Positions 1 to 10,675 of a stretch of 64,000 bases of DNA are shown piece after piece; position 1 is the stretch's first letter, and each line of letters opens with the position of its first letter. The notes below the pieces were generated by a model. The model had not been told where the DNA came from and did not search any database. It saw only the letters and a program-made list of their open reading frames with translations. Location of the stretch: the NCBI RefSeq assembly GCF_003018115.1, contig NZ_CP027457.1; one strand, given 5' to 3'. The position numbers and the translations under genes were made by a program. Origin of the DNA: Escherichia coli. GTDB lineage: Bacteria > Pseudomonadota > Gammaproteobacteria > Enterobacterales > Enterobacteriaceae.

Positions 1-331
1 ATTGTGCAGGTCAGCTCGTTTTTAAAGAGTCCGGCCATCATCTTACTGGTACAGACACCATATACTTTGTGACGGTCAGGCTACATATGCACAACTCAAC
101 TTATTCATCTATTTTTTGCTTTAGCATGTCAGTGTTGCTTTCTCGTCGGCGGGTGAGCGGTGACCTGACCTGTCGATAAAGGAACGTAACACGTTTTATG
201 CAACACCCGCATGCGGCAGAAAATTATTGCCGAACGTTTACCCCTGTCAACAAGCTTTACTTTCTGAGGCGCGCCAGCCCGCGAGGAAAACAATCTGAAC
301 ATCAAACAATTAATGACACAAGAAATACGAT

Positions 332-358
332 TAAAGATTTTTTTGTGCATGCCGATAG
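332..358 (+). promoter_or_regulatory. sigma-28 (FliA) type promoter upstream of flxA
   Basis: TAAAGATT (332-339), 11-nt spacer, GCCGATAG (351-358), matching class 3 flagellar promoter consensus TAAAGTTT-N11-GCCGATAA; sits 24 nt upstream of the flxA ATG with AGGAG RBS. Confidence 0.6.
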
Positions 359-381
359 TGCTTTTTTAAAAGGAGAAATCT

Positions 382-714
382 ATGTCTGTCACAATTCAGG
401 GAAATACCTCAACCGTTATTTCAAACAACTCCGCCCCGGAAGGAACATCAGAAATAGCCAAAATCACAAGACAAATTCAGGTGCTGACTGAAAAGCTTGG
501 GAAAATCTCATCGGAAGAGGGGATGACGACACAGCAGAAAAAAGAAATGGCTGCATTGGTACAGAAGCAAATTGAAAGCCTCTGGGCTCAACTGGAGCAG
601 TTGTTAAGGCAGCAGGCAGAGAAAAAGAATGAAGACGCGACAGTTCAGCCTGATAAAAAAGAAGAGAAAAAAGACGATACAAATACCGCTGGCACCATTG
701 ATATTTACGTCTAA
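382..714 (+). CDS. flxA: FlxA, FliA-regulated prophage protein
   Basis: 110-aa ORF MSVTIQGNTSTVISNN... recognised as Qin prophage FlxA; RBS AAGGAG upstream. Confidence 0.85.
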   Translation: MSVTIQGNTSTVISNNSAPEGTSEIAKITRQIQVLTEKLGKISSEEGMTTQQKKEMAALVQKQIESLWAQLEQLLRQQAEKKNEDATVQPDKKEEKKDDTNTAGTIDIYV

Positions 715-728
715 GTGACAGCCGTATT

Positions 729-751
729 GTGGCCCTCATCGGGCCACTTTT
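729..751 (+). terminator. putative hairpin terminator after flxA
   Basis: GTGGCCC-TCATC-GGGCCAC stem-loop followed by TTTTC. Confidence 0.4.
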
Positions 752-879
752 CGCCATCAGCCTTTTCTTTAAAGACATATTATCTTTGTATCATTTCTGA
801 TAGTTAACATTACAAGATATAAGTAATGGACGCACTCCCAATTAGTCTATTTAAATCGCCACGAGTTTAACTGACAACC

Positions 880-2600
880 CATGATCAATTATGAATTGCA
901 ACTATTTCTGTAGTCACTTTTGTGGGGACAGTCCACAAAACTGCCAACTTCCGCTTCTTGCTCTTAGCGGACATTAGCATAGGCTATTTACCATAACGCC
1001 TCATTACGCGCACCGCCCAGACTGACTCAGCGCGTTTCTGGCATATCCCCGGTAAAACAAGTAACAAACCACCCGAAAATGAACACCAGAAACGCGACTT
1101 AAGAATCTACCCTATGAATGGATATGCACTCAACCGAATCGATCTTGGTTTCAATCTTTTTTATCGGGATCAGGCTTCTTTTTAGGTAACTTCGGGGGCT
1201 TAACTTGCTGATGACTTTGCGTTCGGCGCGTAAGCCAGGGATGGTCAGCTTTAGGTTTAACATAGTATTTTGAGCGTAAATCAATACGGGCATTATCCAC
1301 TCGTTCATGGACACTCTTTTCATCATCCAGTGGTATAGGCTCCGGGCCATCAACATACTTTTCCCAGCCCAGCGCTTTCCCGTCATACAGAACGTTAATT
1401 TCACCGTCAAAGTTCTCGCATACAGTAACAACCGAATGCCTAAGTCGATATCCCCGGCCCTCACTGCGTACCTGAAACGCACTGCTTTTGTACTGGAAAG
1501 TGAGATTTTTAGACAGAACGCGCTTCGCCTGTAGGCTGAAGATATAACCCAGTTCCTCTTCAGAATGGTGCACATCAAGATGAGCATTATCAGTAGTACG
1601 AGGCGACGTAGCGAACCGGTTGTTATAGGCTTCAATAAAGGTCGGCAACCATGCATTTGCTGTTTCAATATCACTGATATTCTGAAGCCGCATTTCTTTG
1701 ACCAGCCTGTCCTGTAGTGTCTGATTGGCGCGCTCTACCCGCCCTTTTGCCTGCGGGCTGTTGGCATGGATTGGCTCGATGCCCAGTGTCTTTATCGCAC
1801 GAGTGAACTGGGTCAGCTCACCTTCCCGCTCTGGGTTATTTACCCTGAATATACTGTGTCTATCAGAGTAGAGAGCGAGCGGTACGCCATGATCATTAAG
1901 GTAACCCCGGAGGGTTTCCATGTAAGCCCGGGTTGTTTCAGCAGGCACAAAACGCAACGCCATCAACGCACTGGTGGCATCATCAATGAAAACGATCAGT
2001 GTACATCTGGGGCCTCGATTTTCAAACCAGTCATGAGGTGAGCCATCAATCTGGATCAGTTCACCGTAAGATGGTCGTCGCATGCGGCGTTGATATATAC
2101 GGGCAATTTTACGACGGCGTTCACGCCATAACCCCTCTTCTATCATCCACTTTCTGAGAGTTTCAACGGATAAAGATAAACCGTGTATCTCGCGCAATTT
2201 TTCGCACGCAAACGTAGGTCCAAAATCAGCGTAACGGCCTTTGAGGAGTGAAATTACTGTTGCTCTGAATTCAGTAGAAAAGGAATTATTAGGACGCTTT
2301 CCACGTCGGTGGGAAACCAGACCAGAAGGCCCTTCATTTCTATACCGTTGCACCAGACGTTTAACCTGCCGAATAGAAATGCCAATGCGTGCCGCAGCTT
2401 GTTCCTGAATAATCTGAAGTCGGTGGAGTTCCTTATGACTCATCGTAACAGTCTCTTTGATCATGAAAAATCCCCCAGAGAATTGTCTGGGGACATTTTA
2501 GAATGGTTCAAAGGGGACATTACAGCTTGGTGTTAACAATAGCCTGCTTCTCCGTGCCTTTCGGCACGTAAGAGGCTAACCTACATGTGTCTAGCATGAA
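880..2600 (-). mobile_element. IS481-family-like insertion sequence, boundaries not resolved
   Basis: single 437-aa transposase ORF with N-terminal HTH and rve-type DDE core; interrupts prophage synteny between flxA and the replication module; ends are approximate. Confidence 0.45.
1151..2464 (-). CDS. DDE transposase, IS481-family-like
   Basis: 437 aa; HTH-like N-terminus (ARIGISIRQVKRLVQRY), integrase-core motifs (IDGSPHDWF..., LYSDRHSIF, E in RANQTLQDRL), basic C-terminal tail. Confidence 0.75.
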   Translation of the reverse strand: MIKETVTMSHKELHRLQIIQEQAAARIGISIRQVKRLVQRYRNEGPSGLVSHRRGKRPNNSFSTEFRATVISLLKGRYADFGPTFACEKLREIHGLSLSVETLRKWMIEEGLWRERRRKIARIYQRRMRRPSYGELIQIDGSPHDWFENRGPRCTLIVFIDDATSALMALRFVPAETTRAYMETLRGYLNDHGVPLALYSDRHSIFRVNNPEREGELTQFTRAIKTLGIEPIHANSPQAKGRVERANQTLQDRLVKEMRLQNISDIETANAWLPTFIEAYNNRFATSPRTTDNAHLDVHHSEEELGYIFSLQAKRVLSKNLTFQYKSSAFQVRSEGRGYRLRHSVVTVCENFDGEINVLYDGKALGWEKYVDGPEPIPLDDEKSVHERVDNARIDLRSKYYVKPKADHPWLTRRTQSHQQVKPPKLPKKKPDPDKKD

Positions 2601-2798
2601 ATTGGCCTCAGATTAATGTTAAGCGTCTTGCAGGACGCGTAATGTTAACTGGGGCTTTTCTCTATCTGCCGTTGGTGTCCATGCCCGAGGCAGATAGCCT
2701 CAAGCACCCGCAGTCATTCTACTTAACTAAGATTTCCCCGCAAACCGTTTTTGTCCAGCACAGTAAATATCCAACTAAACCAATGGAGTTCGCTGTAT

Positions 2799-2978
2799 TT
2801 ACCGCCAGTATTCAATGCACATGACCGCCATGAACACCCCTAAAAAAAGGGCATTTATATATCCAAATATTAATATCAAAACATCAACTTTTTCCATATA
2901 CCTTGCTGTGAAGATGATGGGCATACATGATGCGAACAACCAGAACGCAACAAACAAAAACTGCAATGCGTTTTTCAT
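2799..2978 (-). CDS. small hydrophobic protein (59 aa), unknown function
   Basis: ORF MKNALQFLFVAFWLFASCMPIIFTARYMEKVDVLILIFGYINALFLGVFMAVMCIEYWR with two predicted hydrophobic helices; consensus AGGAGG RBS 5 nt upstream of the ATG on the minus strand. Confidence 0.4.
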   Translation of the reverse strand: MKNALQFLFVAFWLFASCMPIIFTARYMEKVDVLILIFGYINALFLGVFMAVMCIEYWR

Positions 2979-3245
2979 TATTCCTCCTACAATCAATGTG
3001 CAATTACATTTAAACACACCTCAATTTGGCCGGACATATAAATATCTAAACCAGAAAAAATCACTTACATAGCGTTACAAACTCTTTAGTCTAAAGGTTC
3101 ATCGTAAAACATTCCCCATACTTATCAGTCCGTTCCGCGCCAGGTAGCTCATTGCCTTATCTGGCAACCTGTAATCAGGTTTCCGCTTTTTCAGTTGGCT
3201 GGTCGTTTAACCGACATAGTTAATCCATTAATCTAGTTGCCGGAT

Positions 3246-3660
3246 GTTGGTGGATTTTCGCGTTTTAGTTGTTCATAAAAGTGCACAGCTTTAACCAGTT
3301 CTTCTGATGTAACTGGGACTGGTGAGGCAGTGAATAAGGCCTGAATTTGATAGTTCGGCCTGTCGTTACAATCCTCTTTTTTCGGTACATATTTCCAGTC
3401 ACCAGACCACTACTTCCCCTGAAAGTCCGTAACGCCTTTTTTCACGTAGCGATATCGCCATGCCACTGGTTTTGCTTGCCCCGCCGTTTCATGCCCTTCC
3501 TGATAATTAATCTCGCTCATTCATCGCCCCACTCATCACAATATGCTTCGACCGGAGTTTTTCCCGCTTCATAGTCATCACGCTAGGATTCGACATCAGC
3601 AGCACTTCCACCGCGTAACTCACCATAGTCCATTAATAGTTCATCCCGCTCTTCAAAACT
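3246..3660 (-). pseudogene. degraded prophage gene remnants (short ORFs broken by stops and frame changes)
   Basis: minus-strand translation gives runs such as MSEINYQEGHETAGQAKPVAWRYRYVKKGVTDFQGK and WSGDWKYVPKKEDCNDRPNYQIQALF... in shifting frames; continues across the IS66 target site. Confidence 0.25.
3653..3660. repeat. target site duplication TCAAAACT (left copy) of the IS66-family element
   Basis: identical 8-mer immediately outside both inverted repeats. Confidence 0.8.
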
Positions 3661-3741
3661 GTAAGCGTCGTCTCAGCACCGTCTGGCAGATCCTGAAATT
3701 CCTGAGAGAATAGTGGACACCAAATATGGTGGACGCAATCC

Positions 3742-4146
3742 ATGAAATCATTAACCGCAGTGCGTAAAAAAAGCCCTAATTATCCCGTTGAGTTCAAAAT
3801 CAAAATGGTTGAACTCTCGCATCGACCAGAGATCTCCGTAGCGCAACTCGCTCGTGAGCATGGGATCAACGATAATTTGCTGTTCAAGTGGCGCCAGTAC
3901 TGGCGCGAAGGAAAACTACGTCCTCCTTCAACAACAGAAAACAACGTGCCTGAGCTGCTCCCGATAACACTTGATGCCGAAGATGTTGTCCCTACAACCT
4001 CCCCCCGGTCACAACCTGTAGCTGCTGCGACACCTGAATCACTCAATATCAGCTGTGAAGTGACGTTCCGGCACGGATCACTCCGTCTGAATGGTGCCAT
4101 CAGCGAAAATATCCTGAACCTGCTGATACGGGAGCTCAAACGTTGA
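3742..4146 (+). CDS. IS66-family TnpA (orf1)
   Basis: 134 aa, HTH-like N-terminus; first ORF of the IS66 triad. Confidence 0.8.
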   Translation: MKSLTAVRKKSPNYPVEFKIKMVELSHRPEISVAQLAREHGINDNLLFKWRQYWREGKLRPPSTTENNVPELLPITLDAEDVVPTTSPRSQPVAAATPESLNISCEVTFRHGSLRLNGAISENILNLLIRELKR

Positions 4147-4490
4147 TCCCATTACCATCAGGGACAAAGATCTGGCTGGTCGCTGGCATCACCGATATGA
4201 GAAACGGCTTCAACGGCCTGGCGGCAAAGGTGCAGACGACGCTGAAAGACGATCCGATGTCAGGTCACGTTTTTATCTTCCGTGGGCGTAATGGCAGTCA
4301 GGTAAAGCTCCTCTGGTCTACCGGCGATGGACTGTGTCTGCTGACCAAACGGCTGGAGCGCGGCCGCTTCGCCTGGCCGTCAGCCCGGGATGGCAAAGTG
4401 TTCCTCACACCGGCACAGCTGGCGATGCTGCTGGAAGGTATCGACTGGCGGCAGCCTAAAAGACTGCTTACGTCCCTGACTATGTTGTAA
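4143..4490 (+). CDS. IS66-family TnpB (orf2)
   Basis: 115 aa MIPLPSGTKIWLVAGITDMRNGFNGLAAKVQ...; overlaps the tnpA stop. Confidence 0.8.
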   Translation: MIPLPSGTKIWLVAGITDMRNGFNGLAAKVQTTLKDDPMSGHVFIFRGRNGSQVKLLWSTGDGLCLLTKRLERGRFAWPSARDGKVFLTPAQLAMLLEGIDWRQPKRLLTSLTML

Positions 4491-4538
4491 GCCTCTTTAT
4501 CCTGGTCGACGCTGAATGAGCCTGGTAATATACCCGGT

Positions 4539-6074
4539 ATGAGCAGCTCACTTCCTGACGATATCAATGCACTGAAACGTCTCCTTGCCGAACAGGAGGC
4601 GCTGAACCGTGCCCTGCAGGAAAAGCTGAACGAGCGTGAACGCGAAATAGACCATCTGCAGGCACAGCTGGATAAGCTGCGCCGGATGAACTTCGGCAGC
4701 CGCTCGGAAAAAGTCTCCCGTCGTATCGCACAGATGGAAGCTGACCTGAAGGCACTTCAGAAAGAAAGTGATACCCTTACCGGTCGGGTTGACGACCCGG
4801 CCGTGCAGCGCCCGCTGCGTCAAACCCGCACCCGCAAACCGTTCCCCGAATCACTCCCCCGCGATGAAAAACGGCTGCTGCCGGCAGCGTCATGCTGCCC
4901 GGAATGTGGAGGCTCGCTGAGCTATCTGGGTGAGGATGCCGCCGAACAGCTGGAGCTGATGCGCAGCGCCTTCCGGGTTATCCGGACTGTACGTGAAAAG
5001 CATGCCTGTACTCAGTGCGATGCCATCGTGCAGGCCCCCGCGCCTTCACGGCCCATCGAGCGGGGTATCGCAGGACCGGGGCTGCTGGCCCGCGTGCTGA
5101 TCTCAAAGTATGCAGAGCACACCCCGCTGTACCGCCAGTCTGAAATGTACGGCCGCCAGGGCGTGGAGCTGAGTCGTTCACTGCTGTCGGGCTGGGTGGA
5201 TGCATGCTGCCGGCTACTGTCACCGCTGGAAGAAGCGCTTCAGGACTATGTGCTGACTGACGGTAAGCTCCATGCTGATGACACGCCTGTCCCGGTGCTG
5301 TTGCCAGGCAATAAGAAAACGAAGACCGGGCGGTTATGGACCTACGTTCGTGACGACCGTAACGCCGGGTCAACGCTGGCGCCGGCGGTGTGGTTCGCTT
5401 ACAGCCCGGACAGAAAAGGCATCCATCCGCAGACCCATCTTGCGGGGTTCAGTGGTGTACTGCAGGCGGATGCATACGCCGGGTTCAACGAGCTGTACCG
5501 GGATGGCCGGATAACGGAAGCCGCCTGTTGGGCTCACGCCCGCCGTAAAATCCACGATGTGCACGTTCGCACCCCGTCAGCCCTGACGGAGGAAGCGCTG
5601 AAACGGATCGGCGAACTGTACGCCATCGAGGCAGAGATAAGGGGAATGACGGCGGAGCAGCGCCTTGCCGAACGTCAGTTGAAAACGAAACCGCTGCTGA
5701 AATCCCTGGAAAGCTGGCTGCGTGAAAAGATGAAAACCCTGTCGCGACACTCAGAACTGGCGAAAGCGTTCGCATACGCCCTGAACCAGTGGCCGGCGCT
5801 GACGTACTATGCAGATGATGGCTGGGCTGAGGCGGACAATAACATCGCTGAAAATGCGTTGCGGATGGTCAGTCTGGGCCGCAAAAACTACCTGTTCTTC
5901 GGTTCGGATCATGGAGGAGAGCGGGGAGCGCTGCTGTACAGCCTGATCGGGACGTGCAAACTGAACGGAGTGGAGCCAGAAAGCTACCTCCGCTATGTCC
6001 TTGACGTCATAGCCGACTGGCCGATAAACCGGGTCGGCGAACTGCTCCCCCTGGCGCGTAGCACTGCCGACTGA
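4539..6074 (+). CDS. IS66-family transposase TnpC (orf3)
   Basis: 511 aa with N-terminal coiled-coil, CxxC pairs (CCPECG, CTQCD) and DDE-type core typical of IS66 transposases. Confidence 0.85.
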
Positions 6075-6115
6075 ATAACACATCCCCGTCAATACGGTTC
6101 TTGCTGCACGCTTAC

Positions 6116-9174: not shown

Positions 9175-9582
9175 ATGGAAACAAAAAATTTAACTATCGG
9201 CGAACGCATCAGGTATCGTCGGAAAAACCTCAAACACACCCAAAGGTCTCTTGCTAAAGCCCTGAAAATCTCCCATGTGTCTGTATCACAATGGGAACGG
9301 GGTGATAGTGAACCTACAGGGAAGAACCTTTTTGCCCTCAGCAAAGTATTGCAATGCTCACCAACATGGATTCTATTTGGCGATGAAGACAAGCAACCAA
9401 CACCACCTGTTGAGAAGCCAGTTGCCTTATCCCCCAAAGAACTAGAGCTCCTTGAGCTGTTTAATGCACTGCCAGAATCAGAACAGGATACCCAGCTCGC
9501 CGAAATGCGAGCTCGAGTAAAAAACTTCAATAAACTCTTTGAAGAATTACTAAAAGCCCGTCAGCGGACAAATAAAAGATAA
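9175..9582 (+). CDS. dicA: DicA, cI-like HTH repressor
   Basis: 135 aa METKNLTIGERIRYRRKNLKHTQRSLAKALKISHVSVSQWERGDSEPTG... Confidence 0.9.
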   Translation: METKNLTIGERIRYRRKNLKHTQRSLAKALKISHVSVSQWERGDSEPTGKNLFALSKVLQCSPTWILFGDEDKQPTPPVEKPVALSPKELELLELFNALPESEQDTQLAEMRARVKNFNKLFEELLKARQRTNKR

Positions 9583-10622: not shown

Positions 10623-10675
10623 TTTCTGGTGACGTTTGGCGGTATCAGTTTTACTCCGTGACTGCTCTGCCGCCC
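10623..10675 (+). ncRNA. dicF: DicF small RNA (ftsZ-targeting, processed from the dicA operon transcript)
   Basis: sequence TTTCTGGTGACGTTTGGCGGTATCAGTTTTACTCCGTGACTGCTCTGCCGCCC followed by a T-run, between ydfC and dicB. Confidence 0.8.

Follow-up and report, generated by a model that had tools for sequence, protein, structure and literature searches.

The window analysed here is a 64,000-nt stretch of Escherichia coli contig NZ_CP027457.1. On its minus strand, a 59-aa open reading frame (ORF; MKNALQFLFVAFWLFASCMPIIFTARYMEKVDVLILIFGYINALFLGVFMAVMCIEYWR) occupies positions 2799–2978, stop codon included. Its product, MKNALQ..., begins at an ATG (2976–2978) that is internal to the 72-aa version given in the ORF listing for the window, which runs from a GTG (2799–3017, minus strand). 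Four nucleotides (AATA) separate this ATG from the Shine-Dalgarno sequence AGGAGG at 2983–2988, the reverse complement of CCTCCT. These observations confirm the ORF and the hexamer described in an earlier sequence-only reading of the same DNA, and correct the spacer, which had been given as 5 nt. As was also described there, the ORF is located between two insertion sequence elements: an IS1202-family element ending at 2538, and an IS66-family element (tnpA, tnpB, tnpC) at 3662–6115 on the plus strand. The GC content of the ORF is 37%, compared with 49% for the window. Its GenBank entries read 'hypothetical protein' only, while in RefSeq genomes it is unannotated, PGAP making no call. We found no mention of it in the literature when searching with the peptide string or in work on hokD and Qin.

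The setting is a Qin-type lambdoid prophage of E. coli. Positions 1–3661 and those from 6116 onward are 99.9–100% identical to annotated prophage regions in many complete genomes, and prophages that otherwise match exactly lack the IS66-family element. The minus-strand genes are, in order, dicC, a ydaT-like gene, O, genes for a DUF977 protein, a methyltransferase and a DUF7167 protein, a pseudogene, the place of the ORF, and the ISNCY transposase with ydfW, after which flxA comes on the opposite strand. The whole segment with the ORF is missing from E. coli K-12 MG1655, as ydfW abuts ydfX there. In intact phages, the ORF belongs to the nin region upstream of Q, with the replication genes on one side and hok on the other. 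It is also carried by released or inducible phages such as PhiR42_1 and vB_EcoS-640R1. The 207 nt upstream of the ORF (2979–3185, minus strand) form the upstream part of a mobile module, whose left mosaic breakpoint at 3185 is common to many IMG/VR phage contigs. A terminator-like hairpin with a T-run (3166–3191, plus strand) marks this left edge and would stop antisense, not sense, transcription. The IS66-family element itself was inserted in the region of the pseudogene and the DUF7167 gene with a duplication of about 8–9 bp, and 96 complete genomes share this insertion. Elsewhere in the prophage, the small RNA DicF was located at 10624–10675 on the plus strand (Rfam RF00039, 76.7 bits), as expected in a Qin immunity region.

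Downstream of the ORF lies a complete hok mRNA leader with the sok antisense within it (2538–2709, minus strand), which matches Rfam model RF01794 at 104.1 bits (gathering score 59). This model runs in the hok mRNA sense up to the hok AUG. A mok-like start is present at 2595–2597, and the hok coding sequence is absent after the leader. Just 5′ of the hok ribosome-binding site is a hairpin, CGTGCC-TTTC-GGCACG (2553–2568). This is the GC hairpin that had been placed downstream of the ORF on the same transcript; it is indeed there, but as part of the hok leader and not as the end of the ORF's transcript. A role as terminator was rejected: the hairpin has no U-tract, was not flagged by the terminator scan and falls inside the RF01794 leader. 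Between the ORF stop codon and the hok mRNA +1, as placed by the Rfam alignment, there is a spacer of 89 nt (2710–2798, minus strand). It holds a candidate hok promoter that scored below the scan threshold, with a putative −35 box TTTGCG (2739–2744) and a putative −10 box TAGAAT (2716–2721) on the minus strand, 17 nt apart.

What separates the hok leader from hokD is a 3,274-bp transposon of the IS1202/ISNCY family, of which the left part occupies positions 1–2538 (minus strand). Within the window, it comprises a terminal inverted repeat (2509–2538), the transposase ORF (1151–2464, minus strand) and the passenger gene flxA (382–714). The block continues past the window start; in NZ_CP026085.1 (locus L001), the region corresponds to 2725–6014. 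In Qin-type prophages, the 3,274-bp block contains the ISNCY transposase with ydfW, flxA, ydfV, relB and relE. Its inverted repeats start with TGT and match at 22 of 30 positions. A 15-bp direct repeat, GGAGAAGCAGGCTAT (minus strand), adjoins the element at 2539–2553 as a target-site duplication, and the second copy is found outside the window, directly 5′ of the hokD ATG. The transposon sits exactly between the complete hok leader with sok and the start codon of hokD. A published description of the ISTde1 subgroup within the IS1202 family (bioRxiv 10.1101/2022.12.17.520857) names passenger genes, TGT ends and direct repeats of 15–17 bp. Given these ISTde1-like features, the relBE-hokD arrangement ('relBEF') has the look of a hok/sok locus that was interrupted by a transposon with relBE as passenger. 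If so, this would explain why hokD is found without mok and sok, its leader and sok lying 3.3 kb away. The ISNCY transposase is one unbroken frame of 437 aa in the window, while RefSeq splits the near-identical sequence (99.9–100%) into a 'partial ISNCY transposase' pseudogene and ydfW.

Relatives of the ORF fall into two clades. A word-based search returned near-identical E. coli and Shigella proteins only (clade 1, to which the window ORF belongs), and clade 1 is present in 1,567 complete E. coli genomes. A full HMMER scan of 1.84 billion representative proteins yielded a 59-aa relative with 41% identity (clade 2), which aligns without gaps from Met1 to Arg59 and shares start and stop with the window ORF. 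Of 5,426 complete E. coli genomes, 1,045 have a single clade-2 copy, in a prophage remnant at the ttcA-uspF junction, the Rac attachment site, where its neighbours are a pseudogenised ABC permease and fragments of an integrase and of a DUF1627 gene. In E. coli NC101, for example, this paralogue is located between ttcA and uspF (L087, 829–1008; L088, about 9230–9409). The carriers of clade 2 are mostly B2-type strains, such as CFT073, NC101 and ATCC 25922, and RefSeq leaves the gene without annotation in them.

The flanks of the two clades are unalignable; similarity is restricted to the ORF with some 25 nt before it and some 22 nt after it, so that conservation is confined to the ORF and its immediate edges. 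Nucleotide identity across the ORF is 59%, and the differences are distributed over codon positions 1, 2 and 3 as 25, 18 and 31, corresponding to a dN of 0.47 and a dS of about 2 (saturated). The BLOSUM62 score of the clade alignment is 145 in the frame of the ORF, and each of the five remaining frames scores between −5 and 62. Neutral change was also simulated, matching the substitutions between the clades in number and spectrum; the frame stayed open in 2.2% of runs, and these open runs scored 77 ± 23, none of them reaching 145. The sequence-only reading had staked the ORF on its conservation in related sequences, and clade 2, at 41% identity in 1,045 E. coli genomes, provides it. From this comparison of sequences, we conclude that the ORF is, or recently was, a protein-coding gene, and it is very probably a real one. 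Since there are just two clades, both from E. coli and Shigella, the comparative test amounts to one deep comparison.

The second clade also bears on the start codon. An 8-nt indel between the clades, 5′ of the ATG, pins the conserved start at Met1. The 72-aa version with the GTG start, common in GenBank records, was rejected, as the indel breaks the extension and the Shine-Dalgarno sequence lies inside it. The Shine-Dalgarno sequence of the clade-2 paralogue is AGGGA, 6 nt 5′ of the ATG, and AGGGGG replaces AGGAGG in about 40% to nearly half of haplotypes.

Contrary to what had been proposed from the letters of the window, the combination of AGGAGG and ATG is not unusual for a chance ORF: shuffled sequence would give 2.35 occurrences of AGGAGG-N3-9-ATG in the window and 2 are observed, so that chance suffices to account for the ribosome-binding site by itself. 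This, and the fact that T-rich DNA yields hydrophobic peptides, would suit a chance ORF in the AT-rich spacer upstream of hok. Alternatively, the real feature could be an antisense ORF of 85 aa (2815–3072, plus strand), as PGAP ignores the ORF described here and two phage records annotate the antisense one. Both possibilities are scarcely credible. It is the comparative evidence that places the ORF beyond chance, and the frame-specific conservation and the improbability of neutral retention of an open frame largely refute the first. The antisense ORF, named 'hornerin' or 'hypothetical protein' in phage records, has two stops in clade 2, scores 62 and would encode a hydrophilic product; it is very likely a shadow ORF. 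What is supported is the claim that this is a genuine gene for a small hydrophobic protein in a prophage.

Searches for further relatives returned the same two clades. A degenerate back-translated motif matched 85 loci in 241 million metagenome records, all of clade 1 or 2, and tblastn against phages and plasmids gave clades 1 and 2 only and no third clade. In a six-frame scan of one genome per species, there was, among the matches listed, one locus, in a metagenome-assembled genome labelled 'Collinsella', which carries little weight for the presence of the gene in other genera. The two clades in E. coli and Shigella constitute a new, narrowly distributed family. The Collinsella sp. contig, JAIJJM010000167.1, carries this E. 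coli prophage module with 100% protein identity and is most likely a binning contaminant.

Within the clades, all sampled full copies are intact (139/139 in clade 1 and 32/32 in clade 2, 171 in all), and the density of variable sites in the ORF is about a third of that in the spacers next to it; in clade 1, 6–7 such sites fall in the 180-nt ORF, about 10 in 117 nt on its upstream side and 9 in 90 nt on its downstream side. The polymorphic sites among the 171 copies are 11 nonsynonymous and 0 synonymous, the replacements being A16V, V31I, I37M, Y40H, L44I, M53T and Y57C in clade 1 and V6M, S11N, A31V and R33I in clade 2. Of the fixed differences, about 50 are nonsynonymous and 24 synonymous; against these, the 11:0 ratio gives a Fisher p of about 0.03, on a small sample. 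This pattern points to relaxed selection, in cryptic prophages, or diversifying selection, and not to simple purifying selection; constraint at synonymous sites could also account for the missing synonymous polymorphism. The ORF might then be a relic, a former phage gene that now drifts neutrally in cryptic prophages without present function. Besides the eleven nonsynonymous sites, such a reading could draw on the clade-2 prophage, which is reduced to fragments and whose adjoining hok is a pseudogene, and on the ORF copies in some strains that are IS-disrupted or frameshifted. Neutral drift is nevertheless unlikely in view of the 171 intact copies, the low density of variable sites relative to the flanking spacers, the presence of the gene in the released or inducible phages named above, and the conservative nature of most replacements (A/V, V/I, I/M, L/I).

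The association with hok extends over both clades. In phage vB_EcoS-640R1, a 647-nt module corresponding to window positions 3185–2539 (96% identity) continues into an intact 70-aa mok/hok, the Hok part of which is K-12 HokD. Among IMG/VR contigs, the hok leader comes next after every clade-1 copy for which the contig is sufficiently long. In clade 2, about 300 nt are deleted, and what comes next is a 3′ remnant of hok that shows 81% identity over 62 nt and contains a stop codon. The converse does not apply: of 86 phage records with this hok leader, 3 have the ORF, and VT2-Sakai and mEp460 have different DNA upstream of hok. The ORF is therefore an optional upstream companion of hok. This adjacency persists across deep divergence, which could potentially reflect shared ancestry only.

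The predicted protein has almost no soluble part. A Kyte-Doolittle profile with a 19-residue window has two peaks above 1.6, and AlphaFold2 predicts helices at residues 2–26 and 32–58 with a mean pLDDT of 76. Hydropathy and structure prediction thus agree on the two transmembrane helices that had been proposed. The GRAVY value of 1.26 compares with 0.55 ± 0.32 for open shuffles, and T occupies 52% of codon position 2 and 23% of position 3. Part of the hydrophobicity is a matter of base composition, as the coding strand is T-rich, but the observed value still exceeds what composition gives. On these models, the product is probably a membrane protein. Its charges are K2 or R2-K3 at the N-terminus and R59 at the C-terminus, with a neutral or acidic loop, and by the positive-inside rule this would suggest that both termini are cytoplasmic and the short loop periplasmic. 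Three stretches are conserved between the clades: S17-C18-x-P20-I-I-x-T24, F38-G39-x-x-N42-A-L-x-x-G47-V-F49 and I55-E56-x-W58-R59. The retention of polar and small residues inside the helices suggests helix packing or oligomerisation in the membrane.

The first of these stretches allows a different reading, in which residues 1–17 are a signal peptide, LspA cuts before Cys18 and the mature product is a lipid-modified peptide of 42 residues with a C-terminal transmembrane helix. PROSITE rule PS51257 calls for K or R in the first 7 residues, an uncharged h-region and a Cys at positions 15–35, and it is satisfied in all 15 variants of both clades, each of which matches the lipobox pattern [LIVMFWSTAG]2-[LIVMFYSTAGCQ]-[AGS]-C at Cys18. 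Lipoprotein processing is for this reason a live alternative. S17-C18 is moreover invariant while residues 2–16 are poorly conserved, a pattern that a signal peptide with a lipobox behind it would show. When the same hydrophobic segment is shuffled, though, about 9% of the resulting sequences comply with the rule as well, and the residues at positions +2 to +7 from the Cys are strongly hydrophobic (MPIIFT or VPIILT; mean Kyte-Doolittle 1.9–2.5). Together with the preceding residues, they make one continuous hydrophobic stretch of 21 residues, which is typical of a transmembrane helix and unusual in lipoproteins. We consider the lipoprotein rather improbable and the helical hairpin the better description.

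Family and structure databases gave little to go by. The ORF protein has no match in Pfam or NCBIfam at E-values up to 10, and the 15 variants have no convincing family in Pfam at E-values up to 1. PHROGs gave no usable hit, with phrog_6298 at E = 0.12, and DUF4212 gives a weak match with clade 2 only (E = 0.032), far from convincing. No PADLOC defence model matches either clade, and a sequence profile search of the PDB found nothing. Foldseek against the PDB gave nothing better than E = 7, as a 59-residue hairpin carries too little information.

Among known systems, GhoT/OrtT (about 57 aa, two transmembrane helices, PF10753) come closest in length, number of helices and near absence of a soluble part, and like the ORF they are found among toxin-antitoxin loci in E. 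coli. They differ in that PF10753 was not matched in the searches at E up to 10 (query) and up to 1 (15 variants), and in that no GhoS-like antitoxin gene lies beside the ORF. By analogy, GhoT/OrtT would be the nearest functional counterpart, if the ORF protein is membrane-damaging. The Hok/Gef peptides (PF01848) are likewise small, hydrophobic, inner-membrane and prophage-borne, and the ORF is found 89 nt upstream of the hok +1 in every clade-1 copy. Hok/Gef, however, have one transmembrane helix and a periplasmic tail containing a Cys, whereas the ORF encodes two helices and has no homology to them, with neither a Pfam or NCBIfam match at E up to 10 nor a tblastn match of HokD at the ORF.

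Class II holins or pinholins such as S21 are also small, phage-encoded proteins with two transmembrane helices. A holin-like role had been among the suggestions made for the ORF. It is unlikely, because the gene lies in the nin region, upstream of Q and outside the lysis cassette downstream of it, and because helix 2 is followed by a tail of four residues (EYWR) and there is no match to a holin family in Pfam or PHROGs; a dual-start motif is also lacking. Prophage morons include genes for small membrane proteins, such as HK97 gp15, lambda RexB and P22 SieA/SieB. The ORF resembles these as AT-rich cargo with a predicted membrane product, presence/absence among related phages and a sharp mosaic boundary, and has the deviant base composition of an accessory gene (breakpoint at 3185; 37% against 49% GC). 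It differs from HK97 gp15, RexB and SieA/SieB in having no homology to them in PHROGs or PADLOC, and a promoter and terminator of its own, as in morons, were not found.

The 207 nt upstream of the ORF contain no sigma-70 promoter at 9/12 or better, and no promoter is conserved between the clades even at relaxed thresholds; consensus promoter scans have limited sensitivity, the putative hok promoter having been missed too. There is no sense-strand terminator between the upstream early genes and the ORF, or between the ORF and hok. The repeat analysis identified no inverted repeats framing the ORF. The mRNA fold prediction leaves the Shine-Dalgarno sequence unpaired. Predicted folding does not stand out from that of shuffled sequences, with z-scores of 0.54 for the sense and −1.05 for the antisense strand, and Rfam has no match over the ORF, the nearest being that of the neighbouring hok/sok leader only. 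An explanation of the ORF at the RNA level was rejected on these two grounds.

The same results bear on whether the ORF is an independent type I toxin, silenced by an antisense RNA of its own together with mRNA structure, which would duplicate the hok/sok logic. It is small and hydrophobic and adjoins a type I locus, and the opposite-strand hairpin at 3166–3191 could end an antisense RNA over its 5′ region. Control of hok involves mok, Sok and an elaborate mRNA fold, while the ORF has a free Shine-Dalgarno sequence and no structured RNA. With no antisense promoter at 9/12, no occluding fold predicted, RF01794 restricted to the neighbouring leader, and two transmembrane helices, which are atypical of such toxins, we regard membership of the type I toxins as very improbable on these models.

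The reading we lean towards, with modest confidence, is that the ORF is a coding gene for a 59-residue helical hairpin of the inner membrane, the first gene of a mobile sORF-hok/sok module and a membrane-acting accessory. The protein would have both termini in the cytoplasm and transmembrane helices at about residues 4–24 and 33–55, joined by a short periplasmic loop. Its gene would be the first of an accessory module of about 0.9 kb, followed by hok/sok, that is carried by lambdoid prophages of E. coli and Shigella in the nin region, from the replication genes to Q. As no promoter of its own was detected, expression is most likely by read-through of the rightward early operon (delayed-early). 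Translation would start from the exposed Shine-Dalgarno sequence, and the transcript would run on into the hok leader. The protein could then act at the membrane in the context of Hok, with a part in the killing of the host, in abortive infection or in exclusion. This functional guess, drawn from context, size and helix packing motifs, is a tentative one and on balance doubtful.

The constant place beside hok suggests the hypothesis of a protein partner influencing a classical type I toxin system in prophages. In its strongest form, the protein would be a functional third component of prophage hok/sok, as a membrane partner, a co-toxin or a modulator of Hok killing, which we regard as a long shot. 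If it were so, the protein would condition the timing or manner of Hok killing, for example during abortive infection or prophage loss, and the adjacency across two clades and two prophage backgrounds would reflect functional coupling and not shared ancestry. If the protein is made at all, about 2,600 complete E. coli genomes, some with both clades, carry a gene that is unannotated in RefSeq, which would add to the evidence for the under-annotation of small membrane proteins.

One of the genomes used for comparison may deserve a check of its strain label or lineage. NZ_CP026085.1 (4.83 Mb) is labelled DH5alpha and contains the full Qin segment with the ORF and the hok leader, unlike MG1655.
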